Shown here: one piece after another, positions 6,807-52,080 of the stretch | Numbering within the stretch: position 1 is the first letter of the stretch | How the letters are laid out: every line of letters starts with the position of its first letter | NCBI GenBank assembly: GCA_049318005.1 | Contig: JBMOHE010000001.1 | Location: forward strand, 51,440 to 115,439 | Direction of reading: 5' to 3' | DNA: 64,000 nucleotides | DNA from: Patescibacteria group bacterium | Lineage (GTDB): Bacteria > Patescibacteriota > Patescibacteriia > Patescibacteriales > UBA12465 | Translations under genes and position numbers: made by a program | Notes under the pieces: generated by a model | Databases searched by the model: none | The model's input: the letters and a program-made list of their open reading frames with translations, nothing else | What the model was told of the DNA's origin: nothing

Positions 6807-6824
6807 AATAAATTTCAACAAAAA

Positions 6825-6851: not shown

Positions 6852-6859
6852 TTTTTTTG

Positions 6860-6930
6860 CACGGGATGAGGGAATCGAACCCCCGCCAGCGGTTTTGGAG
6901 ACCGTTATACTACCACTATACGAATCCCGC
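6860..6930 (-). tRNA. trnW: tRNA-Trp (anticodon CCA)
   Basis: Minus-strand read: GCGGGATTCGTATAGTGGTAGTATAACGGTCTCCAAAACCGCTGGCGGGGGTTCGATTCCCTCATCCCGTG. Anticodon loop CT-CCA-AA, T-loop GGTTCGATTCC. CCA is not encoded. Confidence 0.85.
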
Positions 6931-6981
6931 AATCATTAGTATTCTAATATTAATCAACAAAAATTGCAAGAATAAGGTAAT

Positions 6982-7009
6982 AAAAAACCGCATTTTAAAA
7001 ATGCGGTTT
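6982..7009. terminator. palindromic terminator downstream of 7019..7615
   Basis: AAAAAACCGCATTTT/AAAATGCGGTTT is a perfect palindrome. Confidence 0.65.
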
Positions 7010-7018
7010 AGCGGCTTA

Positions 7019-10864: not shown

Positions 10865-10874
10865 ATTTTTAATG

Positions 10875-10957
10875 TGGGCCGAGAAGGATTCGAACCTTCG
10901 AAGGCGTAAGCCAGCAGATTTACAGTCTGCCCCAGTTGACCGCTTTGGTATCGACCC
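10875..10957 (-). tRNA. trnY: tRNA-Tyr (anticodon GTA), long variable arm
   Basis: Minus-strand read: GGGTCGATACCAAAGCGGTCAACTGGGGCAGACTGTAAATCTGCTGGCTTACGCCTTCGAAGGTTCGAATCCTTCTCGGCCCA. Perfect anticodon stem GCAGA/TCTGC. Confidence 0.85.
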
Positions 10958-29053: not shown

Positions 29054-30640
29054 TTACCGCTTCTTTATATATAAAAGCATATCAAGCTTTTTTATATCAA
29101 TAATTTCCTTAGATTCAACCCATGCAGGGTTGCCGTCAATATCAAGGGTTGTGGCGCCCAGCAAGTTATAATTATCCCTTAATTCTTGATCCAAATAATC
29201 TAAAAAAATGTTTTTATCGCTCAAGTTAAGTAGTCCACTGTTTTCACTTAAGGGCAAAATAATAGCCGCCGGCTGCCTATTCTTTAAATCTGAGATAGCT
29301 AAATTTTGATATTCAAGCCTTTGAGGGGTATCAATAGTTAAGGGATAAACGATATTAAATTTAGAAGAAGACTTTCTTTGACTAAAATAATATATTTGAG
29401 ACTCAGACCCAGCAACAAAGATGTTGTCACCCTCCGCGGTCAACTGCCCTATTTTTTCCGCCATAAGTCTTGAGCTAACAAACGGTTCAGCATCTCCATA
29501 TATCCAAATAGATAAAGTATTGGGATTTAAAAAGAATTGTTCGGCAGTTCGACAGAACGAAACACTAACAATAAAAATAATAAAGAAAAACAAGAATAGA
29601 TTCTTTATAACCTCTTCCTTTATTTTTATTTTTTCTAAAATAACTGAGAATGAACCCGCTGCCAGTAAAATTAAAAGCGGCGCCAACAACAAATAATAAT
29701 GACCGATAGTAGTAGTAATTATAGAGAGCAAAGAGGCGATTAATAAAATCAAAAAAATAAGATAATATTTCTGCTTAACAAAAAATGATGTCAAGGCTAG
29801 TAATATTATCGGCCACCAATTATTCCAAAAAATTTGAGAATAATGAAAAAATCGCTCCGGAAAATATTTTTTAGTATCAGCGACATAACTAAAATTATAC
29901 ACAACAACTTGTCGCCAAACTTCAACTATTGCCCCATGAGTTACAAAATAAAGCAAACTTAAAGCGGTCGTTACAAAAGCTCCGAGAAAAATATACAAAG
30001 CCGACAAAAAGAACTTACTTATTTTTTTATCAATTACATAATTATTTACTAGCCAATATAAAATTATTATGCATGATGGTATAAACGCAATCGGTTTATA
30101 TAAAATTGCCAAGGAGGCAAGAACACCAGCTAAAAAATAAGTAATTACTTTTTCCTTTTTATTATAAAAAATAAATAAGGCAATCAAACCAACTAGTGGC
30201 AGCAGCATGAATTTTTCGGTATTAGCTGAGAGAGCGGTTAAATAAGGTGAGAGCAAAATAAGCGGTGACGACCAAAGAGCTAGCCAGGCAGCCCTAAAAC
30301 CATAAAGTTTTTTAACGACTAAACTTAATAAAATACAGGTAGCTAGAGTAAACAAAAAACCTAAAAGTCTTGGTGGCCAAACAGCGGAAGGAGAAATTAA
30401 ATTTGTCAAATAATAAGTATAAATTATTAAAGGCGGCTTCTGGATAAAGGAACCAATATAGGGAGTCTCTCCCCTTTCCATTAACCAGGCCGAATAAGCA
30501 TATTCACCCTCATCTCTTTCCCAGGGAGAACTGAAAGAATTTATATGAAGAGAAAAAAAGAAAATTAAAAAAAACGCAAAAAATATAATACTAAAAAATC
30601 TTTTTTTAAAAAAAATTTTTACTTCTTTTTTTCGCGTCAT
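29054..30640 (-). CDS. ArnT/PMT-like (GT39/GT83-type) membrane glycosyltransferase
   Basis: 528 aa with more than 10 TM helices. The first periplasmic loop ERDEGEYAYSAWLMERGETPYIGSFIQKPPL is typical of dolichyl/undecaprenyl-phosphate-sugar-dependent glycosyltransferases. Confidence 0.55.
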   Translation of the reverse strand: MTRKKEVKIFFKKRFFSIIFFAFFLIFFFSLHINSFSSPWERDEGEYAYSAWLMERGETPYIGSFIQKPPLIIYTYYLTNLISPSAVWPPRLLGFLFTLATCILLSLVVKKLYGFRAAWLALWSSPLILLSPYLTALSANTEKFMLLPLVGLIALFIFYNKKEKVITYFLAGVLASLAILYKPIAFIPSCIIILYWLVNNYVIDKKISKFFLSALYIFLGAFVTTALSLLYFVTHGAIVEVWRQVVVYNFSYVADTKKYFPERFFHYSQIFWNNWWPIILLALTSFFVKQKYYLIFLILLIASLLSIITTTIGHYYLLLAPLLILLAAGSFSVILEKIKIKEEVIKNLFLFFFIIFIVSVSFCRTAEQFFLNPNTLSIWIYGDAEPFVSSRLMAEKIGQLTAEGDNIFVAGSESQIYYFSQRKSSSKFNIVYPLTIDTPQRLEYQNLAISDLKNRQPAAIILPLSENSGLLNLSDKNIFLDYLDQELRDNYNLLGATTLDIDGNPAWVESKEIIDIKKLDMLLYIKKR

Positions 30641-30659: not shown

Positions 30660-31403
30660 CTATTTAATTAATACTTCTGTTCCTACTGATAGTCGGTCAT
30701 ATATATATTTTGCTGAGCCAACTCCCAGGCGAACACAGCCATGAGACACCGGAGTGCCAAGATGGCTCGCTCCTTCTCTATAGCCATTAGGCCAAACCGG
30801 GAGTTCGTGAATTCCTATCCCGGGACTATTTATACCCATCCAATATGGCATCCAAAGTTTATAAGTTTTTGACCAAGCGCGCGGTATTTTATTTAAGATT
30901 TTAAACTTTCCTTTTGGCGTGGCCATCCCAGACTTGCCACTAGAAATTACAAATTCTTTCCAGGGCTGATTAGCTACATAATAAACCAACTTCTGTGTTT
31001 TTAAAGTTATTTCTACGCGTTGATCTAATTTTTTTGTAGAGCTAGACAAGGGATTGAAACCAAGATCAACCTCTAAACCATCCTTTTTCCCGTCTTCATC
31101 TGTGTCAGGGTTAGACGGGTCAGTTTTAAATTTAATTTCAAAGTGATCGCTTAAACCATCTTTATCAACATCGCTTTTTTCTATTTTTATTTCTTTAGCA
31201 TTAAAAGGCGAATAGCCACTGGCAATTTCCTGGAAATCATTATAACCATCATTGTCAGTATCAATTGTTTTATCTAAAGTTATTCTTTCTAAATAGGTAG
31301 CCCTTGGGTTTAAATCTTCCGCTTTTACATTATCAATTTTAAAAACAAAAATTATGAAAATAATTAAGAAAAAAATAAAGAAAATATTTTTTTTATATAT
31401 CAT
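30660..31403 (-). CDS. L,D-transpeptidase (YkuD domain) with N-terminal Ca-binding-type Asp repeats
   Basis: Catalytic GTPVSHGCVRL. N-terminal DTDNDGYNDFQE, DVDKDGLSDHFE and DTDEDGKKDGLE (thrombospondin type-3-like). Confidence 0.85.
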   Translation of the reverse strand: MIYKKNIFFIFFLIIFIIFVFKIDNVKAEDLNPRATYLERITLDKTIDTDNDGYNDFQEIASGYSPFNAKEIKIEKSDVDKDGLSDHFEIKFKTDPSNPDTDEDGKKDGLEVDLGFNPLSSSTKKLDQRVEITLKTQKLVYYVANQPWKEFVISSGKSGMATPKGKFKILNKIPRAWSKTYKLWMPYWMGINSPGIGIHELPVWPNGYREGASHLGTPVSHGCVRLGVGSAKYIYDRLSVGTEVLIK

Positions 31404-31405
31404 AA

Positions 31406-33016
31406 TTATTTTCTTAAAGAAAACTCACAACCACAAAATTTCTGTCTATAAATTCCTAACTTCTTAGCCAGTTCTTGAGATTTTCGATAAGCATCATTAG
31501 CCTGAAAATCTAAATTTAAAAATTTAATTTTATTCTTTTTAGCTAACTTAGTACAAATTTTATTGATAATTTTTTTATCTTTATAAGGGCTAACCAGCAA
31601 GCTCGTACTAAAATAAGTAAATTCTTTTTGTTTAGCTAGCTCGGCTGTTTGAATTAAGCGATTATAATAACATATCTGACAACGCTGACCGCGCTCTTTA
31701 TCATTTTCATGACCATTAACTAAGCTCAACCAGCCCGAATGGTCATAAGGCTCAACAATCAAAGGAATATTATATTTTTCAGCCATTAATTTTACGGCCT
31801 CCAATCTTTTGTCATACTCCTCTTGAGAGTTTAAATTTGGATTTAAAAAATACCAGGTTAAATCATAGCTTGGAAGTAAAATATCGCGACTAATAAAAGT
31901 GCTACAAGGGGCGCAGCAAATATGAAGTAATAAACTTGGTTTTTTATCACTCTCTTTATTATTTTCTTTATTTTTTCTCTCCTGACTAAGATCAAATAAA
32001 TAAAAACCGCCGACCATTAGAAACATTAAAACTAAAAGAAAAATAAGGACTAAAAATTTTCCTCGACTTTGAAGAAACAAACCGCTTAAACCAAAGACTA
32101 GCGAAAAAAAATAAAAAATTAAAACGGTCTTTTTTTGACTGAGGCCAAGGCCTAGAAGTCGATGGTGAAGATGTTTTTTGTCAGCGAAACGAAAAGGATT
32201 CTTCCCTTTTAATAAACGTCTAATAATTGTCCAGGCGACATCCAAAATCGGAATTCCCATTACTAAGAGCGCGATCGCAATTTTTCCGCCGGAAATTATT
32301 GCTAAGACGCCAAGAATATAACCAAGCAAGAGTGAACCGCCTTCCCCAAGAAATATTTTAGCGGGGTTCCAGTTAAAAATTAAAAAACCAGATACTGAAC
32401 CAACTAGCAAAATAGAAGCAAACGCGATATCCGGTTGAAAGTAACGAGTAGTAAGCGTAAACAAAAAAATTACTAAGCCGCCAATAGCGCTAACCCCCGA
32501 GACTAATCCATCAACCCCATCTAATAACTTAGTCGTATACATCATTCCTAAGAGCCAAATAGAAACTAAAAGCGGTCCAATAAAAAAGAATGATTTCAAA
32601 TATAAATAGCCACCAAAAGGATTAGTTATTTTATCTATCCCAACTCCACCTAAAATTAAAATAATAATCGCTATTAATGGAAAAATTATTTGTAGCTTTG
32701 GTGATAAATTATATTTATCATCAAGCGTTCCGCCAATAACAATGATTAAAGCTCCCAAAAAAAATGAAATTAGATGGGTTATGCGCAAATTACCAGCTAA
32801 AAAATAAGAAGAAAAGCTAAATAACAAAATAAAGTAAGCCAAAAAAATAGCGACCCCTCCTAACAGAGGGATCGGCTCTTTGTGAATTTTTCGACTCACT
32901 TCATTATCCTTATCAGGCAAATCAACAATCTTAAAAACTAAAGCAATTTTTTTGATTGCTAAAGTTAAGATTGCTGATAATATTAAACTGGCTAAAAAAA
33001 TAAAAAAATAAAACAT
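31406..33016 (-). CDS. fusion protein: WecA/MraY-like polyprenyl-phosphate sugar-1-P transferase (GT4) + QueH (DUF208) epoxyqueuosine reductase domain
   Basis: N-terminal ~340 aa: KIHKEPIPLLGGVAIF, LDDKYNLSPKLQ, LLDGVDGLVSG, FLGEGGSLLLGY. C-terminal ~180 aa: LLLHICCAPCS, ERGQRCQICYYNRL, GIYRQKFCGCEFS. One uninterrupted frame. Confidence 0.75.
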   Translation of the reverse strand: MFYFFIFLASLILSAILTLAIKKIALVFKIVDLPDKDNEVSRKIHKEPIPLLGGVAIFLAYFILLFSFSSYFLAGNLRITHLISFFLGALIIVIGGTLDDKYNLSPKLQIIFPLIAIIILILGGVGIDKITNPFGGYLYLKSFFFIGPLLVSIWLLGMMYTTKLLDGVDGLVSGVSAIGGLVIFLFTLTTRYFQPDIAFASILLVGSVSGFLIFNWNPAKIFLGEGGSLLLGYILGVLAIISGGKIAIALLVMGIPILDVAWTIIRRLLKGKNPFRFADKKHLHHRLLGLGLSQKKTVLIFYFFSLVFGLSGLFLQSRGKFLVLIFLLVLMFLMVGGFYLFDLSQERKNKENNKESDKKPSLLLHICCAPCSTFISRDILLPSYDLTWYFLNPNLNSQEEYDKRLEAVKLMAEKYNIPLIVEPYDHSGWLSLVNGHENDKERGQRCQICYYNRLIQTAELAKQKEFTYFSTSLLVSPYKDKKIINKICTKLAKKNKIKFLNLDFQANDAYRKSQELAKKLGIYRQKFCGCEFSLRK

Positions 33017-33019
33017 AAC

Positions 33020-35713
33020 TTATAAAATAGAGGCCTTTTCAACTTCAATCTTCGCCCGAGAATTAATCACAACCGTATCACGACGTTTTAGCTCCCCACT
33101 TAAGATTAAATTAGCTATACTATCCTCAACTTTATCTTGAAGTAATCTTCTTAGCGGTCTAGCGCCAAACTTAGGGTCGTAACCTTCATGAGCCAAAATT
33201 AAAACACCATCTTTATCTGCCTTTAAATTTATACCCTTATCGCCTAAATTCTTTTTAATTTTTTTAAGCATTAAAGTCGCAACTGATAAAACATCATTTT
33301 CCGTTAATGGTCTAAACACAATGATACCATCAAACCTATTAATTAATTCCGGACGCATGTATTTATTTAACTGGTTGTCGATTAACTCTTGCTTAATCAA
33401 ATTAATATTAGTATTTGCTTTAATTTGATCTTGAATATAAACAGCCCCAATGTTAGAGGTTGCAATTATAATTGATTCAGTAAAACTGATTGTCTTTCCC
33501 TGCCCATCGGTTAAACGACCATCATCGAGTAGTTGTAAAAAAAGATTTAAAATATCAGGATGAGCTTTTTCGATTTCATCTAATAAAATCAAAGCAAACG
33601 GTTTTTTTCTAACCGCCTCAGTTAAATAACCCATAGTCCCGTCACTATCGCCAATCATTTTTTTAATACTATCTGGATGCTGATATTCACTCATATCAAT
33701 TCTAACTAAATAGTCCTCATCGCCAAAATAAACCTCGGACACCGCTTTGGCTAATTCAGTTTTACCGACACCGGTTGGACCAAGAAATAAGAAACTGGCA
33801 ATTGGCCTGGTTCCTTCTTTAAGCTGAGCTCTCGCTCGACGCAAACTAGAGGAAACAGCTTTAACTGCTTCTTCTTGCCCAATTAAACGTTTATGAATTT
33901 CTGTTTCTAAACCTAATAGTTTTTTACTTTCATTAACCGTTACCTTGCTCGCTGGAATTCCTGTGATTTCTCCAACTGCGGCTGCAACTTCATCCTGACT
34001 ACAAAAGCATTTAGCTGGATCGTTTTTAGAATTTTTTGCCGTAATTAAAACCGCCTTCTCGAGCAAATCAATCGCTTTTAGCGGCAAGCATCTATCATGA
34101 AGATAGCGTTCTGACATTTTAACTGATTGCTCTAAAGCGCTGTAAACAATAAAAACATCATATCTTGACTCAAGCATCGCAACTTTACTTTCTAAAATTT
34201 GAACCGCTTCATTATATTCTGGTTCCTTAATGCCTATTGTTGTAAACACTGTTCCTAAAGATTTATTTTCAATATATTTATCATAGTTTTCCGTGGTTAC
34301 CGAAGCTAAACAAATTAAATGATTGCGACTTAAAGCTTCAGCTAAAACGTCAGATAGGTCCATACTCTCTTTACTACCGGCAGTAATTCCAATTAGATTT
34401 TCAACATTATCAATATATAAAATAATATTTCGTGATCGATTAATTTCGCTAATCGCAATTAATAATTTTTCTTCAGCCCCTGATGCGTCAGAACCACTAA
34501 TTAAACGGGAAACATCTAGTTCAACTAAGCGTTTATCTTTTAAAAATTTAGGTACATTTTCTTCAACCATTAGCTGGGCCAAGCCATTGATAATAGTGCT
34601 CTTACCTATTCCGCTCGGACCGACTAAAAGAATTCCATTGTGTCCTCCCTCAAGATTTTCAAAAATAGAAATAATTTCATTTTGACGTCCAACGCAAATA
34701 TCATTTGCTCCATACTTAGACTGGATTGTTAAATCGTTAGAAAAACGATCAAGGCTAGGAGTTGCAATCGCCGTATAAGCTCTATTCATCCCCGTACTTG
34801 GCTTAAATAAAGCTAACTGACGATTAGCCTTATAACTATCAAGCATTTTTTTATTTACCCTCAACCATTCGACCGTATTTATAATTTTGTTTTCATCAAG
34901 CTCTAGTTCATAGAGTATTTCCGCTAATTTTGCATCTTTCAGGTAGCAAAAGGAAACTAAATTTAAAACATCAACGCTCTCAGAATTTAAATTATAAGCT
35001 TCAACAAAAGCTAAAACAAAAACCTCTCCTAAAGCAGGGCTCAAAGCACTACCTTTAGTTTTTTTAACATCTTGTGGTGCCGCCAAACGACGATCAAGTA
35101 ACTCAATTAATTTCTTAGCATCGATATTTAAACGAATGAAAAGAGTTTTAATTTCTTTGCACTTTAAAATAGAACGGAACAAATGAATTATGGTTACCTC
35201 TTCCTGGTTTAAGCGATTAGCTAAAAGATAAGCATCTTCAATCGCTTTTAAAGACACATCATTAAAAGATTTAGCGATATTATATTTCTTTGGTTTTAAA
35301 CTTTTTTTGCCATTGCTTGAAAAGGTTTTATAATTAATTCTCTTGCAGCCCGCCCTAGCTTCACTCTTTTTATAAAATAAGAATAAGTCAAACCAAAGAG
35401 AAAAAACAAAAATTAAAATAAGGGGGTCACTTTTACTCCAAAAAAATAGAATATGAAACGGATTAGCAATTAAATCAACCTGATTATAAAAAATCCAAAA
35501 ACCGAAAGCTGCCCAACCAGCAAAAATAATTATCCAAGTAATAAATTCTAATAATCTTTCGGCATTTTTTTTACTTCTCTCGAGAACAATAATTGATTTT
35601 TTTAAATTTCCATCCCAATGCAAAAAGCGCCCTAAAAACCAGGCGCCAAAAATTTTTCCACTGTCATCAGGGCTAAAAATAATTTCACTAGGAGTTGTTT
35701 TTATGTTAAGCAT
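33020..35713 (-). CDS. membrane-anchored two-AAA Clp/Hsp100-family ATPase, no M-domain, degenerate first AAA module
   Basis: N-terminal ~110 aa carry hydrophobic helices, followed by two Clp_N-like repeats. D1 has Walker A GPSGIGKST, but ILYIDNVENL replaces [10 protein letters not shown] and SLGTVFT replaces LERRFQ. D2 is canonical ([31 protein letters not shown]). Confidence 0.8.
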   Translation of the reverse strand: MLNIKTTPSEIIFSPDDSGKIFGAWFLGRFLHWDGNLKKSIIVLERSKKNAERLLEFITWIIIFAGWAAFGFWIFYNQVDLIANPFHILFFWSKSDPLILIFVFSLWFDLFLFYKKSEARAGCKRINYKTFSSNGKKSLKPKKYNIAKSFNDVSLKAIEDAYLLANRLNQEEVTIIHLFRSILKCKEIKTLFIRLNIDAKKLIELLDRRLAAPQDVKKTKGSALSPALGEVFVLAFVEAYNLNSESVDVLNLVSFCYLKDAKLAEILYELELDENKIINTVEWLRVNKKMLDSYKANRQLALFKPSTGMNRAYTAIATPSLDRFSNDLTIQSKYGANDICVGRQNEIISIFENLEGGHNGILLVGPSGIGKSTIINGLAQLMVEENVPKFLKDKRLVELDVSRLISGSDASGAEEKLLIAISEINRSRNIILYIDNVENLIGITAGSKESMDLSDVLAEALSRNHLICLASVTTENYDKYIENKSLGTVFTTIGIKEPEYNEAVQILESKVAMLESRYDVFIVYSALEQSVKMSERYLHDRCLPLKAIDLLEKAVLITAKNSKNDPAKCFCSQDEVAAAVGEITGIPASKVTVNESKKLLGLETEIHKRLIGQEEAVKAVSSSLRRARAQLKEGTRPIASFLFLGPTGVGKTELAKAVSEVYFGDEDYLVRIDMSEYQHPDSIKKMIGDSDGTMGYLTEAVRKKPFALILLDEIEKAHPDILNLFLQLLDDGRLTDGQGKTISFTESIIIATSNIGAVYIQDQIKANTNINLIKQELIDNQLNKYMRPELINRFDGIIVFRPLTENDVLSVATLMLKKIKKNLGDKGINLKADKDGVLILAHEGYDPKFGARPLRRLLQDKVEDSIANLILSGELKRRDTVVINSRAKIEVEKASIL

Positions 35714-36894: not shown

Positions 36895-39537
36895 ATGTTT
36901 AATAAATTTACGGACAAATCGCAAGAAGCCATTATTAACTCCCAATTAATTGCTAGTTCATATGGCCAAGCTAATATTGAAGCTCTTCATATTCTTCTTT
37001 CCCTTCTTGAGCAGAACGAAAGTTTAATCAAGCCAATTTTGGAAAAAATGAAAATTGACCCCGAAATGATTGAGGACGTCGTCGCTAAAGAATTAGAAAA
37101 ATTACCAAGTACAAAAATAAAACCAAATGAGGGCCCAGTCCAGGCAGTCTCCGGAACAGCTGAAACGGCCATGATTCTAGAACGTGCCCAGAAAGAAGCC
37201 GATGGCATGAACGATGAATTTATTTCAACCGAACACATACTCCTGGCTCTAATTGGTGTTAAATCTCCAGCTCAAAACGTCCTTCTTAATTTTCAAGTTG
37301 ACTATAAGACTGTTAAAGAAATTCTTAAAGAGCTTCGCGGTAGCCAGCCAATAACTGACCAATTTCCTGAAAATAAATATAAAGTTTTAGAAAAATACAC
37401 AACCAACTTAACCGAACTAGCTCGTCAGGAGAAGCTTGACCCGGTTATTGGTCGTGATTTAGAAATTCGTCGCATCATGCAGGTTCTTCTTCGTCGCACA
37501 AAAAATAATCCAGTTTTAATTGGCGAGGCCGGAACTGGAAAAACTGCGATTGTTGAAGGACTGGCACAAAGAATTATTGCCGGAGATGTGCCAGACAATT
37601 TAAAAAATAAAGAAGTCGTAACCCTCGATCTTGGTGCATTAGTTGCGGGCGCAAAATTCCGCGGTGAATTTGAGGATAGATTAAAAGCAGTTTTAAAAGA
37701 AGTTAAGTCTCAAAACGGAAGAATTATTTTGTTCATTGATGAACTTCACACTTTAATCGGTGCTGGTGCCTCCGAAGGTTCTATGGATGCTTCAAATATG
37801 TTAAAACCAGCGCTTGCTCGAGGCGAGCTCAGAACTATAGGCGCAACAACTACTAAAGAATATCAAAAATATATTGAAAAAGATGCGGCCCTTGAAAGAC
37901 GTTTTCAACCAATTATGGTTAACGAACCAAGTATTGAAGATACAATCTCAATGCTTAGAGGTTTAAAAGAAAAATACGAGGTTCATCATGGAGTTAGAAT
38001 TACTGATAACGCCGTTATTGCGGCTGCTAAATTATCAAGTCGCTATATTAGTGATAGATTTTTACCAGACAAAGCAGTTGACCTAATTGACGAAGCAACT
38101 TCTTCCCTGCGCATGGAAATTGATTCTATGCCTGACGAGCTAGACCAACTAAAAAGAAAAATCAATCAACTTGAATTAAATAAGGCCGGAATAATGACGA
38201 CTGATAAAAAATCTAATAAATTAAGATCAGTTAACCAAGAGCTAGCTAAGCTAAAAGAAACAGCCAACCAACTTGAACTCCACTGGAATAATGAAAAAAA
38301 TATTATTTCTCAAATCAGAGATTCAAAAAAGACAATTGAAGATTTGAAAATTAAAGCCGAGATTACCCAGCGTCAAGGAGCTGACTTAACTGAAGTTGCT
38401 AAAATAAAATACGGCCTAATACCTGAACTTGAAAATAAAATAAAAAAACTTCAAGATGAACTTGTTAAAATTCAAAAGAAGGGTCAAAGAATATTGAAAG
38501 AAGAAGTTGATGAAGAAGATATTGCTAAGGTAATCGCGCGCTGGACAGGTATTCCAGTTAATCGCATGCTTCAAGATGAGATAAGAAAACTAAGCGAGGC
38601 TGAAAATGAACTAAACAAAGAAGTCGTCGGTCAAGACGAGGCAATTAAAGCTGTGGCTAATGCAATTCGTCGCTCTCGGGCTGGAATTAATGAAGAAAAA
38701 AAACCAATCGGTTCATTTTTGTTTGTTGGTCCAACTGGGGTCGGCAAAACAGAGCTTGCTAAAAATTTAGCTAATTTCATGTTTGATGATGAAAAATCTT
38801 TAATTCGTTTAGACATGAGCGAATTCATGGAAAAACACTCAGTCGCCAAACTAATCGGCTCCCCTCCGGGATATGTCGGTCATGATGACGGCGGCCAATT
38901 AACTGATAAGGTTAGACGCCATCCTTATAGCGTTGTTTTATTTGACGAAATTGAAAAAGCCCACCCCGACATGTTTAATATGTTACTTCAAATTCTTGAC
39001 GATGGACGTTTAACTGATTCCAAGGGCCGAACTGTTAATTTTAAAAACACAATTATTATCATGACCTCTAATTTAGGCAATGAAATAATTAAACAATACT
39101 CAATCGGCTTTTCAGACGGTAGCGATAAAAAAGAAGTGGCTCAAATGCGCAGCGATGAAATGAAAGAAAAAATTGATAAAATTTTAAAAACTCATTTTAA
39201 ATTAGAGTTTTTAAATAGAATAGACGAGATCGTGCTATTTAGAAGTCTGACTCCGGCCGCACTTGAAAAAATTGTTGATTTAGAATTAATTAAAGTTGAA
39301 AAACGTCTCAACAATAAAAACATTACCCTAAGAATCAGTCCAAAGATTAAAAAGATGTTAGCTGAGAAAGGATATGATATTACTTACGGCGCCAGACCAC
39401 TAAAAAGAATTATCCAAACCATGATTCTTGATGAACTAGCCTTAGAAATTATTGAAGGTAAGGTTAAAGAGGGGGATAAAGTTAAAATTGAACTTGAAAC
39501 TAAAGATAAAGTTATAATTAGCGTAACCAAAAAATAA
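36895..39537 (+). CDS. clpB: chaperone ClpB
   Basis: Two canonical AAA modules (GEAGTGKTA / [10 protein letters not shown] / LERRFQ; [13 protein letters not shown] / [11 protein letters not shown]) separated by a long coiled-coil M-domain. 880 aa. Confidence 0.95.
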
Positions 39538-44309: not shown

Positions 44310-44381
44310 GGTCCCTTCGTCTAACGGTTAGGACATCAGATTCTCATTCTGATAACAGGGGTTCGATTCCCCTAGGGACTA
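44310..44381 (+). tRNA. trnE: tRNA-Glu (anticodon CTC), integration target
   Basis: GGTCCCTTCGTCTAACGGTTAGGACATCAGATTCTCATTCTGATAACAGGGGTTCGATTCCCCTAGGGACTA. Anticodon stem TCAGA/TCTGA, loop TT-CTC-AT, G1.U72 wobble. CCA is not encoded. Confidence 0.85.
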
Positions 44382-44601
44382 CTAATTAAAAAGTGCTCAG
44401 CGTTAGCTGGGCATTTTTTAATTAGACGGCGTTAGCCGAGGGGAATCGAACGGGTGGCAACGAGCTTAGCCGAAGGTCAGCAGACCGAGGCGTAGCGAGT
44501 GCCGACAAAAGCGAGCTGGCGCAGCTTTTGGCGCCACCCCTGGACAACGAAAGAACGAGCGACGGCGAGTGATTGAGGCGGAATTCCCCTAGGGACTACT
44601 A
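44376..44601 (+). repeat. left 226-bp direct repeat (attL-like), starts in the last 6 nt of tRNA-Glu
   Basis: GGACTACTAATTAAAAAGTGCTCAGCG...GAGGCGGAATTCCCCTAGGGACTACTA. I compared it base by base with 53815-54040 and found no difference. Confidence 0.85.
44388..44419 (+). terminator. tRNA-Glu terminator hairpin (inside the direct repeat; second copy at 53827-53858)
   Basis: AGTGCTCAGC-GTTA-GCTGGGCATT followed by TTTT. Its two G.U pairs form only on the plus strand. Confidence 0.6.
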
Positions 44602-46084
44602 TCGGAGAATTAGCACTTGCTAGTTCTCTTTTGTTTTGTAAAATTAGTGAAATTTTAGGTGTTTGATTTATTGAAAAATTGAAAGTTGGTTTTTCGGTAA
44701 AAATCAAACTCTGTAATTTAAGCTTATCTTGATAATCGGCTTTTTTATATAAAGCCGGAAGATTACTTAACACTTTAAAGACCTTATCTACTTCTTTAGT
44801 AATATTAAAATTCAAGTTAGGCTGATCGTAAACGATAGCCTGTTGATTTGAAATAGTGTTTTTGATTTTTTCCATCTCGTCTTTAAAATCTTCATCATCT
44901 AATAATTCTTTTTTCTTCATTTCAATTAGCTTGGCTTTTTCGTTTTGTAGTTCTGTTAATTTTTCTTTGGCTAATTTAATTTTATCAACTGATAAACTAC
45001 TAATATCTTTTATTACACTTTGCAAAACTTTTTTATAAACCATTAAAGTCTTTTCGCTTGGTGTTATTTTCATAAGGTAATCAAAAAACTCTCCCTCTAA
45101 CTTATCTTTAGAGATTGATTTTAAGCCTTTGCAGTCCTTGTTATAGCATTTATAGAACGGATAGAGCTTTCCGCTTTTACTTTTTGACATGCAGGCAGTT
45201 ATTGGACGATTACAATGAGGGCACAGTATAAAATGACGGAGCGGAAAAGTTTCATTAGGCGTACTAGCTGAAATATTATCGCCCTTGTTTCCGGTTTTAA
45301 TAAGTCTTTGGCATTTATAGAAAGTTGATTCGTCTATTAATGGTTTATGGGTGCCTTGATATTCTTCGCCTTTGACGGTCATAACTCCTAAATAGAATTT
45401 CTCGGTTAATATTTTAAATAGAGTTTGGCTAGTTAACTCTTTGCTCTTCCATGATTTGAATCCGGCTTTAATCATTAGCTGTCTAATCTCTTCCATTCTA
45501 TAAGCACCACTAGAGAATTTATTAAAAGCCATTTGAATAATCTCAGCTCTTGGTTTATCTATCGTTATAACGGCTCCATTTTGACCGTCTCGGCTATTTA
45601 TATAACCTAGTGGTGCTTTATAACACCAGATGCCTTGTTTAATTTTCTCAAGCATGCAAGAAGATACTCTTTCGCTCCTTACATCATTATCAAATTGAGC
45701 AAATGACGCCATAATAGTGCCGATTAGTTTTCCACTTGGTGTTTTATCAACTGTTTCAGTGGCAGAGATAAACTTAATTTGTAATTCTTCAAGAGCCATC
45801 AAAATAGTAGCGTAGTCTTTAACGTTTCTTGAGAGTCTATCTATTTTATAAACAATGACTGAATCAATATTTCTATAGTTCTTCTGACAATAACTTAATA
45901 ATTCCTGCAGTCCTTTGCGGTTAGTGGTTTTAGCTGATACACCATCGTCATGAAATAGTTTTGTGATTTCAATATCATGGTTTAAGGCATATTCTAAACA
46001 AGCCTTTTTCTGTTGCTCAAGACTGACTCCATTTTGAGCTTGGTCTTCGGTTGAAACTCGGTAATATATAATTCCTTTTGACAT
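44477..46084 (-). CDS. large serine recombinase
   Basis: I prefer the ATG at 46084 (MSKGIIYYRVSTEDQ, catalytic Ser). Resolvase domain (DRLSRN), recombinase domain, Zn ribbon CPHCNRP...YKCYNKDCKG and a coiled-coil tail. The last ~42 codons are encoded inside the direct repeat. Confidence 0.9.
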   Translation of the reverse strand: MSKGIIYYRVSTEDQAQNGVSLEQQKKACLEYALNHDIEITKLFHDDGVSAKTTNRKGLQELLSYCQKNYRNIDSVIVYKIDRLSRNVKDYATILMALEELQIKFISATETVDKTPSGKLIGTIMASFAQFDNDVRSERVSSCMLEKIKQGIWCYKAPLGYINSRDGQNGAVITIDKPRAEIIQMAFNKFSSGAYRMEEIRQLMIKAGFKSWKSKELTSQTLFKILTEKFYLGVMTVKGEEYQGTHKPLIDESTFYKCQRLIKTGNKGDNISASTPNETFPLRHFILCPHCNRPITACMSKSKSGKLYPFYKCYNKDCKGLKSISKDKLEGEFFDYLMKITPSEKTLMVYKKVLQSVIKDISSLSVDKIKLAKEKLTELQNEKAKLIEMKKKELLDDEDFKDEMEKIKNTISNQQAIVYDQPNLNFNITKEVDKVFKVLSNLPALYKKADYQDKLKLQSLIFTEKPTFNFSINQTPKISLILQNKRELASANSPIVVPRGIPPQSLAVARSFVVQGWRQKLRQLAFVGTRYASVC

Positions 46085-46260
46085 AGAATTAAGGTTAATA
46101 AATAAAAAGAAAGCGGTGAAACTGTCGGACACAACTTAGCAAAAAGCCTTGTTGAAACAGCCACCGCTTTCTTTATATCAAAACGACCTTAGTCGCTTGG
46201 ATGTAAAATATAGTGACTTCTTGCTTTATAAGTTGTGTCCATTAGAGATATTAGCATATA

Positions 46261-46428
46261 TTATGATTTATTCAATATTAGATTATTTTTTCTTTTATCT
46301 TGGTAATGGTACTTACAAGCCAAACTAACCAACTGATAGATATCTCGCCGAATAGCGATAATCTCGTCTTCAGAATAATCATTAGCGTAAACGCCAAGAT
46401 TCTTTCTGATAACTTCTAAACTTAACAT
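46261..46428 (-). CDS. possible 55-aa protein between rep and the recombinase (below the ORF-track cutoff)
   Basis: My translation is MLSLEVIRKNLGVYANDYSEDEIIAIRRDIYQLVSLACKYHYQDKRKNNLILNKS. Supported by the open frame only. Its position would suit an accessory or directionality factor, which is speculative. Confidence 0.3.
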   Translation of the reverse strand: MLSLEVIRKNLGVYANDYSEDEIIAIRRDIYQLVSLACKYHYQDKRKNNLILNKS

Positions 46429-46478
46429 ATCTTTGGGGGATATGTTTACATCAAAGGAACTTTCAAAGAGGATATTTG

Positions 46479-47282
46479 TTATCCGTTTTTATAGAGCTGA
46501 TAACTAACTCTTCCGACCCATTCGGATCGGTACCACTTATCGACTAACAATTCAGATGGCAATTCTAGAGCATCTATAAACTGTCTTACTTTTAGAGCAC
46601 TAATAACAGTTTCCGGTCTTTTGAGTTTGCGAGAGTAAAAGATTTTCTTCTTGCCAGAGAGTCTTCCGTCAAACAATTCTTTAGCAATGTATTTAGATAC
46701 GTATAAACCCACTCGGGACACATGGCGAATATTGTTGATTTTAATAAAACCATAGCTCCATATTTCTTCCAGCCTACTGCTAGCTGTATATGGTAAATTA
46801 GAGAGTAAATGATAGTGAACGTTTCCGCCGCTTTCTTTCTTTATCTTTGTCTTAAAGTAATAATCTCCTTGAAACTCTGGGACGGCTAAATAAAGTAAAT
46901 CAGGATAAAACCTTTTTAGCCTTTTAATAAAGTTAGAAAATATTAAATTGCATTCTCTCATGTCGGTAAATGAGCCAGTCTTTGATTTGCTATTATCAAA
47001 GGTTAAAGTAATAAATACTTTTAGCTCCGGATTGGAATTCACTAGACGAACAATATTGGCTTTTGTCCGTCTTAGAGAAAAATCGCTTTTTACCGCTTGG
47101 TTAAAATCTTCTTGGTCTTTTTCTTCTTCGCTTTTAACGTCTTCAACACTGAGCATTGGTCTTTTTTGTTTTCTCTTTTTTCTCTTATGCCCGACTCTAA
47201 TCGCTTGCTCATAATAGTAGATTTCTATTATATCGCCTGATCTGATTAGCTTGTGCCGATAAGCTCGGATTGGTAAATCCAT
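46479..47282 (-). CDS. rep: HUH-superfamily rolling-circle replication initiator (Rep)
   Basis: Motif I FITLTF, motif II (HUH) NVHYHLL and motif III YVSKYIAKE (catalytic Tyr), in the canonical order and spacing. Confidence 0.7.
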   Translation of the reverse strand: MDLPIRAYRHKLIRSGDIIEIYYYEQAIRVGHKRKKRKQKRPMLSVEDVKSEEEKDQEDFNQAVKSDFSLRRTKANIVRLVNSNPELKVFITLTFDNSKSKTGSFTDMRECNLIFSNFIKRLKRFYPDLLYLAVPEFQGDYYFKTKIKKESGGNVHYHLLSNLPYTASSRLEEIWSYGFIKINNIRHVSRVGLYVSKYIAKELFDGRLSGKKKIFYSRKLKRPETVISALKVRQFIDALELPSELLVDKWYRSEWVGRVSYQLYKNG

Positions 47283-47296
47283 ATGCTTACGGCGTT

Positions 47297-47551
47297 AAGT
47301 GTGCCTATAGTCAAGTTAATAGGGCTACAGGGCACACTTCTTCGTCTTAAATCTCATTTACCGACCGCCCCCATTTTCTTTTTTCGGCTCCCCCAAGGGG
47401 ATGCCGCCAAAAAAAGAAAAAAACGGGGGGCGACCGGTCAAAATATGTTTTACCCCTCAAAGGAACAAAAGGGGTATTTTTGGTCTTATGAGAATAGACC
47501 ACTCGGCCAAACAAAAAACACAAGCGATATATCCGGATATATTGCTCGTGT
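47297..47551. promoter_or_regulatory. palindrome-rich region upstream of rep: candidate replication origin (dso/sso)
   Basis: Four elements: AAGTGTGCC (47297-305)/GGCACACTT (47331-339); a ~80-bp imperfect palindrome 47360-47438 centred on CCCCAAGGGG with poly-T/poly-A arms and G/C-rich outer ends; TACCCCT/AGGGGTA (47451-476); and the 34-bp palindrome ACACAAGCGATATATCC/GGATATATTGCTCGTGT (47518-551). Confidence 0.4.
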
Positions 47552-47755
47552 TTATAGTTGAGTTGGCAAAGATTCAGACTTTGCTTATTATTATATTGAA
47601 GACTGCATTTTTAAATTCATGGACGTAATCTGACTAGCCGTAGCTAGGGTCTATCTTCCTGCCTTATTATTGTTGATTAATAAGTCTATGAGAGTACTAT
47701 AGCAGAAAATTAGGGGAAAATCAATGGGCGAATTTATTGGCAATTTTTAAAGCTT

Positions 47756-47956
47756 TTAATTACGAGGGTCTTCATAGCATGTTTCGTTGCCATATTTATC
47801 TTCATAACAACCATGATTCCCTACCTTAACCCCTTTATTTCCACTTAATCCGGAGATTAAGGTCCAAATCCAAAAACATATAAGAACAACCCCTACAATA
47901 TACCAAAAAATTTTTCCCCAATCTATTTCTTTACTCATATACTTCACGTTAATCAT
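47756..47956 (-). CDS. small single-pass membrane protein
   Basis: 66 aa with TM helix IFWYIVGVVLICFWIWTLISGL and a Cys/Tyr/Glu-rich tail. Confidence 0.4.
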   Translation of the reverse strand: MINVKYMSKEIDWGKIFWYIVGVVLICFWIWTLISGLSGNKGVKVGNHGCYEDKYGNETCYEDPRN

Positions 47957-47997
47957 CTATAAATTTAATAGAATAATATTATCTTAATTTACTATGA

Positions 47998-49308
47998 TTA
48001 ATAGCATTTTACTGAAATTGTACTCACTGCACCAGTGAACAATGTTGAATAGCAACGAATTGGCTTGTATGACCGCAAATTATTATTACTCTGATTTATT
48101 TGATTAATATAATCACTTTGTATTTTATCTTGAGCTACTTTTTGCCTTTCATAAGAAGAAACTGTCTGTAAAAGTTCCCAGTATTTTACCAAAGTAGAAT
48201 CTTCAAGTTTTATATAGCTATTAAAACTGTCCACGAGACTAGCAAAAAATGCAGGATCTGAGGTAGGAGCTTCATCAAATTTAGCATAAGCCTCTACAAC
48301 AGAATTATAAGTTTTAGCATCAATAAAATCGGTAATTTGAACTTCATCGGCTATACCTTTTAATTTTATAGCAGAAGATTTTTTTTCGCTTGATAAATTT
48401 GATAAACTATTTGCCTTTTCTTTTAGCGTGCTAATAGAAGAATTATAATAATTCCCAACATTATATACTATTTTAATAACCTCTAAATCACTAGATGTTA
48501 AAAAATTTGAATTACTATCCGACAAGCCCTGTAAATAACTAGCTCTTGAATTATATAAATCTTTTACTTTATCAATGTAATCTAATAAATACTCATTTTT
48601 CTCAGAATATTTACTTTGAATATTCGCAATGTCTTTTTTATAATTATTACTTTGTGATATTTCAGAATCGCTAGGTTTACAAACAGGGTCTCCCGATGAA
48701 GGGCAATAAAATTTCTTGTCATTTTGGCAAGGTTGCCACTTTTTCCCATTACAATCTAAAAGATTAGAAGTATTTTTATCCGCTGTAGTGGTTTTTATTT
48801 CACTAACTGCAACTGAGCCACCGGCGTTATTGCTTATAGCAGAACTAGAAGTTGCACTTTGCTTATTTGATGATATCTTTTCAATATCTTTATTGGAAAT
48901 ACCTAAGCCTAAATTCCTCATTGCCGTATAAGCCTCTGAGCCATTTTTCAAATAATGAAGATTACCAGAAAAATCAACATAATAAGCCTCGCCTTTTGAT
49001 TCTACTTGTAAAAATATTTTTCCTTTGTGTTTTGAAGCTGCCGTCTTGCTGTTTTTCAATTTTTCCAAATCGCTATTTGTAATTCCAACTCCTAAATTAC
49101 GCATTATATTGTAAGCCTCATCTCCATTTGCCATGTAGTACTTTTCGGCAGTAGACGGATGAACATAATAAGCCTCACCCCTCGATTCTACTTGTAATAT
49201 TATCCTCCCTTTGAGCTTTTGTGCGATAGATGGAGTAGCTGCATTCGCCGGCAATGACGAGAACAGTGTTAACAATAACACCAACATAATTAAAATTTTT
49301 TGTTTCAT
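47998..49308 (-). CDS. secreted protein with duplicated N-terminal ~50-aa domain
   Basis: Signal peptide. KGRIILQVESRGEAYYVHP..YYMANGDEAYNIMRNLGVGITNSDLEKL is repeated as KGKIFLQVESKGEAYYVDF..HYLKNGSEAYTAMRNLGLGISNKDIEKI. The C-terminal 270 aa are unassigned. Confidence 0.55.
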   Translation of the reverse strand: MKQKILIMLVLLLTLFSSLPANAATPSIAQKLKGRIILQVESRGEAYYVHPSTAEKYYMANGDEAYNIMRNLGVGITNSDLEKLKNSKTAASKHKGKIFLQVESKGEAYYVDFSGNLHYLKNGSEAYTAMRNLGLGISNKDIEKISSNKQSATSSSAISNNAGGSVAVSEIKTTTADKNTSNLLDCNGKKWQPCQNDKKFYCPSSGDPVCKPSDSEISQSNNYKKDIANIQSKYSEKNEYLLDYIDKVKDLYNSRASYLQGLSDSNSNFLTSSDLEVIKIVYNVGNYYNSSISTLKEKANSLSNLSSEKKSSAIKLKGIADEVQITDFIDAKTYNSVVEAYAKFDEAPTSDPAFFASLVDSFNSYIKLEDSTLVKYWELLQTVSSYERQKVAQDKIQSDYINQINQSNNNLRSYKPIRCYSTLFTGAVSTISVKCY

Positions 49309-49569
49309 ATTTTTAAATATATTTTTTACACAAAAGGTCTTCCGAAACGGTTAACACACCCTTTCGGATATGCGCCTAGATAGCGAAAACCGGTCAGAAG
49401 ACCATCTCTGCTATCTAGGACTTAAGCCATGCCTTAATAAATTAAGGTTTAGGCCTATTAATTGTACTTAAAATTTATCAAAAAAAGGCCAAAAAGTCAA
49501 TTTATAACTTTTTGACTATTTATATATAGGGTAGTATTATTTAATCAATATTAATTCAAATAACCTTTT

Positions 49570-50019
49570 ATGCAAGATATATTACTAACCTCTAGTTTTA
49601 CAATAATCGGCGGTGTGATTATATTCGTTTTAGGTCAAATAATTGATAGATTTTTAATAAAACCAATTTTTGATCAAAAACAGATAATTGGAGAAATTCT
49701 TGATGCTTTAATTTTTTACGCAAATATTTATTCAAATCCATACACAACAGGTGACCAGAGCAAACACGACGATGCATCTCACAGAATTAGAGGGTTAGCA
49801 TCTAGTTTATTAGTAAAAACTAATTTAGTGCCTGGATATAAACTATTAAGCAAACTTAGAGTAACGATAAAAAGAGATAATATATCAAAGGCTCATACAG
49901 AATTAATAAGACTATCGAATTCGTTATATAGTCACCATTCTCAAGTAATAAATATTGGAATGCAAAATTCCGACACCGCAAACACGATAAAGAAATATCT
50001 CAATAACAATTTTAATTAA
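49570..50019 (+). CDS. hypothetical protein with N-terminal TM helix
   Basis: 149 aa with SSFTIIGGVIIFVLGQII as the TM helix. First of three co-oriented island genes that end with the Abi_2 neighbour. Confidence 0.45.
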   Translation: MQDILLTSSFTIIGGVIIFVLGQIIDRFLIKPIFDQKQIIGEILDALIFYANIYSNPYTTGDQSKHDDASHRIRGLASSLLVKTNLVPGYKLLSKLRVTIKRDNISKAHTELIRLSNSLYSHHSQVINIGMQNSDTANTIKKYLNNNFN

Positions 50020-50143
50020 TTTTTTGGCAATAAAAAAACCTATCGGGTTCGCATGGGCTTCGCAGCCCAGAGGCGTGATAGGTATTGATAATTAAAGTAT
50101 ACATTAATTTGCATAATGTCGCAATAAGATATTGTGGATAAAT

Positions 50144-51046
50144 ATGAAAGAGACTAATATTAAGCTAAAATATGACAAAAAACCATTAACCCTTGATGAG
50201 CAGGTAGGTCTTTTGAAAACCAGAGGGCTAATAATAGAAAGCGAGGAAGAGATAATATATTATTTAACAAATCTAAGCTATTATCATCTTTCTATTTATT
50301 TTAAATATTTTCAAAAAGACGATAAATTTTACGAAGGAATTACGTTCGGAGATATTTTGCGAATTTACATATTTGATAACAAGCTTCGATTTCTTTTATC
50401 TGAGGTGCTAGAGAGAATAGAAAAATCATTCAAGTGCAGGATGGTTTATTCATTATGTGTAGAAGAAGATGATTCTCACTGGCATTTAAATCAAAAATTT
50501 TTTGATTCTGAAGATAATTACTTAGGAATTATAAATATAATAACAGAAAACATTGATAAAAGTCGTGAATTGAGCATATTGCATTATAAGGAAACGTATT
50601 GTGACCCAGTTTTACCACCAATCTGGACAACGCTAGAAATCCTTTCTTTTGGACAATGCTGCCATATATATAATTCATTAAAAAAAGAATACAGAAATAA
50701 AATTTCCAGATCTTTTGGAGAAGATGAAAAGTTCATAAATAATTGGATGCTATGTTCATCTTTATTAAGAAACCATTGTGCTCACTATTCTAGACTGTGG
50801 AACAGAACTTTAACATATACACCAAAAATGAATCATGATTCATATAAAAAATACTTTAATAATGGAAATAAACGGATATATAATTATTTAGTTGTTTTAC
50901 AAATACTATTAAATGAAATAAACCCAACATCATCCTGGTTAGACAAATTAAAGGAACTCATAAATGAATATAAAATTAATGTTAAACAAATGGGTTTTCC
51001 GGAGGATTGGGAAAATAAATTAAAAGAAATAATTACAAATAAGTAA
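50144..51046 (+). CDS. Abi_2 family (AbiD/AbiF-like) abortive-infection protein
   Basis: PLTLDEQVGLLKTRGLII, LSYYHLSIYFKYF, ITFGDILRIYIFDNKLRFLL and LRNHCAHYSRLWNR (HEPN-type R-N-x-x-A-H). The track start at 50132 is a TTG; I prefer the ATG at 50144. Confidence 0.85.
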   Translation: MKETNIKLKYDKKPLTLDEQVGLLKTRGLIIESEEEIIYYLTNLSYYHLSIYFKYFQKDDKFYEGITFGDILRIYIFDNKLRFLLSEVLERIEKSFKCRMVYSLCVEEDDSHWHLNQKFFDSEDNYLGIINIITENIDKSRELSILHYKETYCDPVLPPIWTTLEILSFGQCCHIYNSLKKEYRNKISRSFGEDEKFINNWMLCSSLLRNHCAHYSRLWNRTLTYTPKMNHDSYKKYFNNGNKRIYNYLVVLQILLNEINPTSSWLDKLKELINEYKINVKQMGFPEDWENKLKEIITNK

Positions 51047-51140
51047 AAATCACTCTAAGCACTCTACCCATATTTAACTTCTCCCAATAATCTTACTTTT
51101 TACAAACATTTGTTTTGAGATAGTAAGACTATTAATTATT

Positions 51141-51986: not shown

Positions 51987-52080
51987 GAGGAATTAATCAT
52001 AAAACTTCCGCCCACTTCTCAATTTCCCCAATAATTTCAACTATTTTTTCGGAAACTTGCGACTTTAAGACTACAAATCA

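Follow-up and report, generated by a model that had tools for sequence, protein, structure and literature searches.

A recurrent in-frame fusion of a WecA/TagO-like transferase domain with the queuosine enzyme domain QueH in Candidatus Falkowbacteria

The final step of queuosine synthesis can be performed by either of two enzymes, QueG and QueH (PMC10723273), and in some DPANN archaea the genes for QueA, QueH and Tgt are co-localised (PMC8204110). The latter report shows that other symbionts of ultra-small size have a minimal queuosine module of three steps, and is no evidence for one in Falkowbacteria. Here we describe a gene in which QueH forms the C-terminal half of a membrane protein whose N-terminal half is a GT4 (PNPT-type) transferase domain. 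It lies in a stretch of 64,000 nucleotides (nt) from a Patescibacteria group bacterium (assembly GCA_049318005.1, contig JBMOHE010000001.1, positions 51,440 to 115,439), which in its entirety is called the window below. To our knowledge, a membrane location is unusual for a bacterial tRNA-modification enzyme, and the physiological electron donor of QueH has not yet been identified. In the literature searched, on QueH/DUF208 fusions and on queuosine in Candidate Phyla Radiation lineages, no description of a GT4-QueH or a VanZ-QueH protein was found. The GT4-QueH fusion is real, keeps the reading frame, is specific to its lineage and recurs within it. Its product is probably a membrane protein with two functions, the halves of which act independently of each other and QueH is held at the cytoplasmic side of the membrane, and it probably arose by the merger of adjacent genes.

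The fused reading frame and its two domains

The gene and its parts are laid out as follows, with residues numbered as amino acids (aa) of the fusion protein.

31406..33016, minus strand: complete GT4-QueH fusion open reading frame of 536 aa, ATG to stop, with the stop codon at 31406-31408
31982..33016, minus strand: N-terminal PNPT/GT4 domain, aa 1-345 (PF00953, TIGR02380; 11 transmembrane helices)
32717..32722, minus strand: D99-D100 of LDDKYN, the Mg2+/phosphate-binding DD motif of PNPTs, in a cytoplasmic loop; invariant in 90 to 120 homologues
32507..32521, minus strand: D166-G-V-D169-G, the DGxDG catalytic loop of PNPTs; D166 and D169 invariant
32333..32353, minus strand: FLGEGGS motif, aa 222-228, with E225 in place of the canonical Asp of FMGDxGS; E225 invariant in fused forms
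32162..32173, minus strand: H282-L-H-H285, the HxHH nucleotide-sugar loop of the WecA/MraY family; H282, L283 and H284 invariant
31937..31981, minus strand: inter-domain linker, aa 346-360 (DLSQERKNKENNKES); basic, poorly conserved, predicted disordered
31409..31936, minus strand: C-terminal QueH (DUF208) domain, aa 361-536 (PF02677; PDB 7lc5)
31904..31918, minus strand: C367-C368-A-P-C371 (CCAPC), aligned to T. maritima C9, C10 and D13; invariant
31670..31681, minus strand: C446-x-x-C449, aligned to T. maritima C87 and C90; invariant
31427..31435, minus strand: C528-G-C530, aligned to T. maritima C169 and C171; invariant

Open reading frame calling finds neither a stop nor a frameshift between the two domains. 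A sequence-only reading of this DNA had described the gene as a single frame joining a transferase to QueH, with the junction near 31955; every motif that it quoted is present (IPLLGGVAIF, LDDKYNLSPK, LLDGVDGLVSG, FLGEGGSLLLGY, HICCAPCS, CQICYYNRL and YRQKFCGCEFS), and the junction falls within the Lys/Glu-rich linker. An internal start yielding a separate QueH in this genome was considered and ruled out, since the junction lacks an ATG, GTG or TTG codon in the right frame. Pfam assigns residues 83-242 to PF00953 (Glycos_transf_4) with 99.3 bits against a cut-off of 27 (E 2.9e-28), and residues 362-535 to PF02677 (QueH) with 198.6 bits against a cut-off of 23.5 (E 1.1e-58), the latter match spanning positions 1-174 of the 175 in the profile. 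Because these scores far exceed the curated cut-offs, chance is ruled out for both domains.

The same architecture recurs widely among relatives. Among 5.8 billion proteins a search gave 3678 matches, and all of the best 120 clusters, which were examined, carry both Pfam domains at 61-100% identity and about 100% coverage. NCBI, JGI, ENA and Logan all contribute to these, and those with an organism name belong to Candidatus Falkowbacteria or to the 'Patescibacteria group'; NCBI and Logan also contain a protein identical to the fusion (P0001), encoded on a 198-kb contig. A scan of genomes, taking one per GTDB species, gave 587 relatives, and among the best 80 loci of these, to which the analyses of loci below refer, an uninterrupted GT4-QueH frame stands in 75, in 9 of which it runs on into the downstream YkuD gene. 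The sequence-only reading had proposed looking for the fusion in related genomes and had said that an indel splitting the frame, or a fusion confined to this one assembly, would count against it; what was found is a full-length fusion in independent assemblies. We accordingly give practically no credence to a missed stop or frameshift that joins two genes in assembly or annotation. The two genes are truly separate in 3 related genomes, as such an account would like, but identical or near-identical full-length proteins occur in independent NCBI, JGI, ENA and Logan assemblies, the frame is uninterrupted in 75 of the best 80 species-level genomes, and the linker, variable as it is, always stays in frame.

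Among the 120 homologues, mean identity to the query is 0.72 for the GT4 half, 0.64 for the QueH half and 0.21 for the linker, whose length ranges from 6 to 35 aa. Given that both halves are well conserved, that the linker is not, and that the catalytic residues are invariant, purifying selection acts on both halves.

In public records the fusion protein is named either 'QueH' (NCBI) or 'WecA-type transferase' (JGI) and never both, so that anyone who reconstructs Falkowbacteria pathways will overlook one of the two functions. Many TPA_asm records of metagenome-assembled genomes that bear the fusion in its Falkowbacteria-type synteny, including L001, L004, L005, L009, L013 and L014, are titled 'uncultured Gammaproteobacteria bacterium', and single ones are titled Planctomycetota (L037) or Bacillota (L062); all such titles look like mislabelling.

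The transferase half combines a PF00953 match with the DDxx(D/N), DGxDG, (F/L)xG(D)xGS and HxHH motifs by which the PNPT superfamily is recognised, the sole departure being a conservative Asp-to-Glu change in FLGEGGS; D279 is likewise invariant in the homologue alignment. The canonical WecA/MraY form at this position is FMGDxGS, with Asp. Since the same Glu is common to the unfused Patescibacteria orthologues L087, L088, L095 and L096, it characterises this GT4 subfamily as a whole and has nothing to do with the fusion. The top-scoring NCBIfam model is WecA (TIGR02380), with 118.4 bits against an equivalog cut-off of 326, followed at a distance by MraY (TIGR00445), with 67.4 bits against 192, and the half is not an MraY equivalog. 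A PDB sequence search matches it to MraY structures weakly (E about 1e-7), and in a Foldseek search the predicted membrane half resembles MraY with template-modelling (TM) scores of 0.64-0.78, normalised to the target, and human DPAGT1 with about 0.65. The earlier label 'WecA/MraY-like' is narrowed to WecA-like only; the half is not MraY, and both NCBIfam scores lie below their cut-offs. By its motifs, the half should be a WecA/TagO-like polyprenyl-phosphate sugar-1-phosphate transferase that primes a lipid-linked envelope glycan.

The C-terminal half matches T. maritima QueH (7lc5) in a PDB sequence search (E 7e-27), and in a Foldseek comparison its predicted structure superposes on 7lc5 with a TM score of 0.90, a root-mean-square deviation of 1.6 A and 34% identity. 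All seven of its QueH cysteines (C367, C368, C371, C446, C449, C528 and C530) are invariant in 90 to 120 homologues. We take the conserved CCxxC/D, CxxC and CxC motifs to be the ligands of the QueH [4Fe-4S] cluster and the adjacent iron; the T. maritima positions C9 and D13 are those mutated in PDB entries 9d86 and 9dco, and the PDB further holds QueH complexes with free GMP and with queuosine. The domain is basic, with a median net charge of +5 and an isoelectric point of 8.7, the values for T. maritima QueH being +6 and 9.0. Most likely, to judge from these sequence features, it is still an Fe-S epoxyqueuosine reductase that finishes queuosine in tRNA, and tethering would leave its substrate unaltered. 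One of the two explanations offered by the sequence-only reading was that the DUF208 fold has an additional redox role at the membrane; this is not borne out by a half that keeps all of the hallmarks, and the fold, of QueH.

Where QueH sits follows from the membrane topology. Hydropathy gives 11 transmembrane segments, and an AlphaFold2 model built with 90 homologues has 11 transmembrane helices, a mean predicted local distance difference test score (pLDDT) of 86.5 and a predicted TM score (pTM) of 0.65, with the linker residues 350-357 falling below a pLDDT of 50 and the QueH domain reaching about 95. The catalytic loops of PNPTs, which in the fusion carry DD, DGxDG, GEGGS and HLHH, lie on the cytoplasmic side, as is established for the superfamily. 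Because the number of helices is odd and these loops are cytoplasmic, the C-terminus of the GT4 half, and hence QueH, is cytoplasmic as well. Every GT4-QueH-YkuD triple fusion has one extra transmembrane helix, preceded by basic residues, between QueH and YkuD, and a helix ahead of a necessarily extracytoplasmic YkuD domain is independent support for a cytoplasmic QueH. The CCAPC motif begins 10-44 residues (median 20) past the last transmembrane helix.

Unfused and VanZ-anchored relatives

The components of the fusion occur apart in 3 of the 80 loci. In L014 and L022, both Falkowbacteria, a stop follows GT4 and a few bases further on an ATG opens a QueH gene of ordinary size, 181-186 aa, and in L079, also Falkowbacteria, GT4 stands alone and QueH is joined to YkuD instead. 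These loci may have split secondarily or may never have been fused.

Beyond the clade of fused forms, a different membrane anchor is common. When the whole library is searched by phmmer with just the QueH domain, the GT4 fusions shrink to a few representatives at 50% identity, and many QueH proteins of about 300 aa carry an N-terminal extension of 120 aa that Pfam identifies as VanZ. A search for homologues of VanZ-QueH gave 5596 matches; nearly all of the top 120 are VanZ plus QueH, and those that are named belong to Patescibacteria, Parcubacteria or Falkowbacteria. Such cases include the loci L085-L089 and L094-L096 and the proteins P0124, P0126 and P0276-P0393, labelled by NCBI simply as QueH, and their VanZ anchors mostly have 4 predicted transmembrane helices followed by a basic linker. 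The distribution suggests that QueH is held on the membrane by two unrelated anchors across many Patescibacteria.

The gene orders around these proteins form a graded series. In L088, GT4, DJ-1, VanZ and QueH are four separate genes; L087 reads GT4, DJ-1, GIY-YIG, VanZ-QueH; and in L096, GT4 directly abuts VanZ-QueH. There is also L095 (small hypothetical, ClpB-like, GT4, GIY-YIG, VanZ-QueH, DUF5656, PDZ, PGK, enolase, iPGM), whose backbone is that of the window and whose ClpB-like gene, upstream of GT4, is 47% identical over its full length to that of the window. No GT4 lies within 8-10 kb upstream of VanZ-QueH in L085 and L094, and the context of L089 is different, so that adjacency of GT4 and VanZ-QueH is common and not universal. 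The unfused GT4 proteins of L087, L088, L095 and L096 are 56-66% identical to the fused GT4 half and stop after transmembrane helix 11 with a short basic tail, exactly where the linker of the fusion begins. In the Falkowbacteria loci, no VanZ, DJ-1 or T2SSE gene was found within 10 kb, and GT4 and QueH are each present in one copy. Further, a neighbour-joining tree of 156 QueH domains gathers the GT4-fused ones into a single clade, which sits within a group rich in VanZ-QueH proteins and in free-standing QueH of Patescibacteria.

These states are most simply connected by the following sequence of events. An ancestral, compact stretch of Patescibacteria DNA would have held GT4 followed by a membrane-anchored (VanZ) QueH. 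In an ancestor of Falkowbacteria, the intervening DNA (the DJ-1 or GIY-YIG genes), and VanZ with it, would then have been deleted, joining QueH to the cytoplasmic C-terminus of GT4 and thereby swapping one membrane anchor for another. Later, loss of a stop codon in some lineages would have produced GT4-QueH-YkuD.

What a membrane-tethered QueH may mean

A fusion may report a functional link between its parts, a possibility that the sequence-only reading had raised by speaking of a lineage-specific Rosetta-stone fusion. The lineage specificity is confirmed, the fusion being recurrent in Falkowbacteria. The Rosetta-stone part is not supported: the parts are indeed separate elsewhere (L014, L022, L079, L087, L088, L095 and L096), but there is no specificity of partner, since QueH joins whichever gene adjoins it, be it the upstream GT4 or the downstream YkuD. 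In other organisms, the best 150 representatives show QueH fused to at least 15 unrelated partners, among them VanZ, RNase HII, UDG, MTS and other methyltransferases, the CCA-adding enzyme, PALP (a pyridoxal-phosphate enzyme), Amidase_3, alanine racemase, HAD hydrolase, 5-FTHF cyclo-ligase, radical SAM and M28 peptidase; at least 13 of the partner domains are other than VanZ, as in the proteins P0145, P0146, P0160, P0163, P0165, P0168, P0187, P0212, P0216, P0225, P0248, P0253 and P0261. Because these partners mix nucleic-acid, envelope and other enzymes, a single QueH fusion says little about function, and the Rosetta-stone link of QueH to envelope synthesis is weak. Taken with the separate GT4 and QueH genes of 3 genomes and the VanZ anchors of sister lineages, this leaves the fusion a poor guide to a shared pathway.

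It is in this light that we consider the merger of two independently working enzymes the probable explanation. All catalytic signatures are retained, and each half would therefore keep its own job, glycan priming for GT4 and epoxyqueuosine reduction for QueH. There is no evidence that the two pathways are coupled, and the fusion is better explained by the merger of neighbours in a compact genome. Several observations nevertheless weigh against this explanation. The pTM of 0.65 leaves the relative orientation of the two domains undefined; the QueH active site is held close to the membrane, an unusual spot for docking a tRNA; the neighbour-joining tree carries no support values; and the direction from VanZ to GT4, with VanZ-QueH ancestral, is drawn from distribution only. 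Two unrelated anchors for QueH, together with its envelope-related neighbours (GT4, VanZ and YkuD), could moreover reflect a selected membrane role. A tblastn search with E. coli probes for tgt and queA, too, gave no match in the window and about 1.5 Mb of flanking DNA, the fusion neighbourhoods only.

A canonical QueH without tgt and queA has no substrate, and the reach of that search matters accordingly. It covered the window, the 80 Falkowbacteria loci and L081-L089, at about 20 kb (some 5% or less) per genome, with probes validated against the PDB (Tgt identical to 10fa/10fb; QueA matching B. subtilis QueA at 1e-93); the absence of a match in these neighbourhoods means that tgt and queA are not linked to the fusion locus. 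No preQ1 riboswitch was found in the window with Rfam, and a scan of viral contigs with a Tgt alignment, using lineage-specific peptides, gave only Tgt of the enterobacterial type. L093 holds a Tgt gene split by a frameshift (6325-7455) on a 273-kb contig of 39.5% G+C with a fragmented Lon gene and Bacteroidota-like neighbours; it is probably a long-read assembly with indel errors, unrelated to the fusion.

That no tgt or queA was found near the locus in 80 genomes is also what gives some appeal to a QueH that has taken up new work, namely a membrane-proximal redox role on something other than tRNA. It might reduce a small molecule that is lipid-linked or imported, a salvaged precursor of queuosine for example, or take part in the metabolism of the envelope or of polyprenyls. 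Such a role would sit well with two unrelated membrane anchors maintained over hundreds of clusters, with an active-site motif 10-44 residues from the last helix, with an adjacency to GT4 that is kept even where the genes are unfused, and with other envelope-related partners (YkuD, Amidase_3 and alanine racemase); the PDB complexes with GMP and queuosine indicate, too, that ligands at the nucleoside level can bind. We regard it as quite unlikely, given that the Pfam match is strong and full-length, the fold is near-identical to that of biochemically defined QueH, every Cys ligand is invariant, the domain is basic like tRNA-binding QueH, and soluble stand-alone QueH proteins occur in the same clade (L014 and L022). 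YkuD and Amidase_3, moreover, are extracytoplasmic and thus share no substrate with a cytoplasmic Fe-S domain, the whole block is syntenic including ClpB, PGK and enolase, so that adjacency is not envelope-specific, and many partners are nucleic-acid enzymes, the CCA-adding enzyme among them. Much less likely still is a regulatory coupling in which the Fe-S domain senses redox state or iron and modulates the attached transferase. Only the physical linkage and the shared cytoplasmic placement of QueH and the GT4 loops speak for it; orthologous GT4 proteins without an attached QueH exist in sister lineages and in 3 Falkowbacteria genomes, the linker is variable and disordered with no fixed interface predicted, and the full catalytic apparatus is kept, including positions that match probed catalytic residues, which is more than a sensor would need.

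A closer competitor leaves the chemistry alone and asks whether the attachment itself is adaptive, QueH reducing epoxyqueuosine in tRNA in the canonical manner and tethering having been selected for access to a membrane electron donor or for stability in a tiny cell. Loss of VanZ would, on such an account, have been tolerated only because GT4 provided a replacement anchor. An anchor was kept through the swap from VanZ to GT4, the triple fusions hold QueH by transmembrane segments on both sides, and the fusion is kept in 75 of the best 80 Falkowbacteria loci. Untethered QueH nonetheless occurs naturally in L014, L022 and L088, free-standing forms are scattered through the same clade, the locus offers no known or recognisable electron donor, and the data do not separate selection from neutral retention; we hold adaptive tethering to be possible and rather doubtful. 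The broader proposition that tethering is the normal, selected state of QueH in much of Patescibacteria, through VanZ at first and GT4 in Falkowbacteria, and that QueH works at the membrane, appears unlikely to us. Were it true, QueH would either draw electrons from a membrane-associated donor or act on a membrane-proximal substrate other than tRNA (an imported queuosine precursor or a lipid-linked intermediate), and either would be without precedent in a family of bacterial enzymes that modify tRNA.

Independent halves joined by a merger thus remain the explanation that we prefer. Both domains belong to known families and no new chemistry is implied; what is new is the architecture and the probable history of anchor swapping. 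The same syntenic block is found with separate genes, with VanZ-QueH, with GT4-QueH, with GT4-QueH-YkuD and in split variants; these states document how genome compaction in ultra-small bacteria makes and dissolves multidomain proteins, and they caution that such fusions should not be read as functional links. If queuosine is truly made in these organisms, the fusion offers an entry point to the physiological electron donor of QueH. The most interesting remainder is the apparently widespread tethering of QueH to the membrane in Patescibacteria.

Neighbouring genes and comparison with described systems

The window has a G+C content of about 33%, with dense and co-directional genes, and packing around the fusion is tight, with gaps of 2-3 nt on both flanks. 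Other features are these.

33020..35713, minus strand: ClpB-like AAA+ gene, 897 aa, ending 3 nt upstream of the fusion
30660..31403, minus strand: YkuD gene (signal-anchor, TSP3 repeats and YkuD L,D-transpeptidase by Pfam), beginning 2 nt downstream of the fusion
29054-30640, minus strand: PMT_2/ArnT-like GT-C glycosyltransferase, 528 aa, between the YkuD and beta-propeller genes
36895-39537, plus strand: second ClpB-type AAA+ gene, back to back with that at 33020-35713 (minus strand)
10874-10957, minus strand: tRNA-Tyr(GTA) gene; no other gene of the window encodes a potential substrate of QueH
44477-46132: large serine recombinase, in an apparent mobile element
46479-47282: Rep_ORF2/G2P-type replication protein, in the same apparent element
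49333-49455: LOOT RNA match, 51 bits, in the same apparent element
50132-51046: Abi_2 abortive-infection protein, in the same apparent element
58518-62702, minus strand: open reading frame of 1394 aa

Further downstream of the fusion in the window come the PMT_2 GT-C gene, a beta-propeller protein, a PDZ protein, PGK, enolase and a phosphoglycerate-mutase-type metalloenzyme. Across the 80 loci the genes share one strand and follow the order small hypothetical, ClpB-like, fusion, YkuD, beta-propeller, PDZ, PGK, enolase and mutase, each found in 55-76 of the 80; the ClpB-like neighbour is conserved in 76 and YkuD, a third fused module in some relatives, in 58. The block is a mixed housekeeping backbone and not an envelope operon. 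The 897-aa ClpB-like protein has no Clp_N match and has hydrophobic, transmembrane-like segments within its N-terminal 120 aa, and may be a membrane-associated ClpB paralogue. The PMT_2 enzyme would use a polyprenyl-phosphate-sugar donor, of the kind that the GT4 half could help to make. It was considered as a functional partner of the GT4 half and rejected, since it is missing from all 80 related loci and is therefore an insertion private to this genome. The tRNA-Tyr family is one of the four modified by queuosine. The apparent integrated mobile element occupies about 44310-52000, adjoining a tRNA-Glu gene (44310-44382), and within it G+C falls to 0.28 at 50-52 kb.

Set against described systems, the QueH half is closest to the T. 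maritima enzyme (7lc5), to which it is 34% identical and with which it shares a full-length profile match, the fold (TM score 0.90; root-mean-square deviation 1.6 A), the Cys ligands (CC..C, CxxC and CxC), a length of about 175 aa and a basic character. It differs in being covalently joined to a protein of 11 transmembrane helices, the characterised enzyme being soluble, and in having Cys (CCAPC) at the equivalent of D13, as do the other Patescibacteria homologues inspected. QueG, a cobalamin- and Fe-S-dependent epoxyqueuosine reductase, is a functional analogue only, with a fold and set of cofactors unrelated to those of QueH and no sequence similarity to it.

The GT4 half, for its part, resembles the WecA/TagO-type PNPTs, and their relatives MraY and DPAGT1, in its PF00953 match, its 11 transmembrane helices and cytoplasmic C-terminus, its DD, DGxDG and HxHH motifs in cytoplasmic loops, and its MraY/DPAGT1-like predicted fold. 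It departs from them in scoring far below the WecA and MraY equivalog cut-offs, in the Glu that replaces the conserved Asp of FMGDxGS, and in the Fe-S enzyme domain attached to its C-terminus. MraY has a 10-helix topology with a periplasmic C-terminus, whereas the GT4 half has 11 helices.

The nearest architecture of all is VanZ-QueH, which has the same plan of a transmembrane anchor, a short basic linker and a QueH domain starting ..KKPxLLLHxCC, stands in a shared syntenic block, and has QueH domains that are 47-50% identical to that of the fusion and form the surrounding clade. The two part company in their anchors and in the place of GT4: VanZ is small and has no known enzymatic activity, whereas the anchor of the fusion is an enzyme of 11 transmembrane helices, and GT4, in the VanZ-QueH genomes, is a separate upstream gene.

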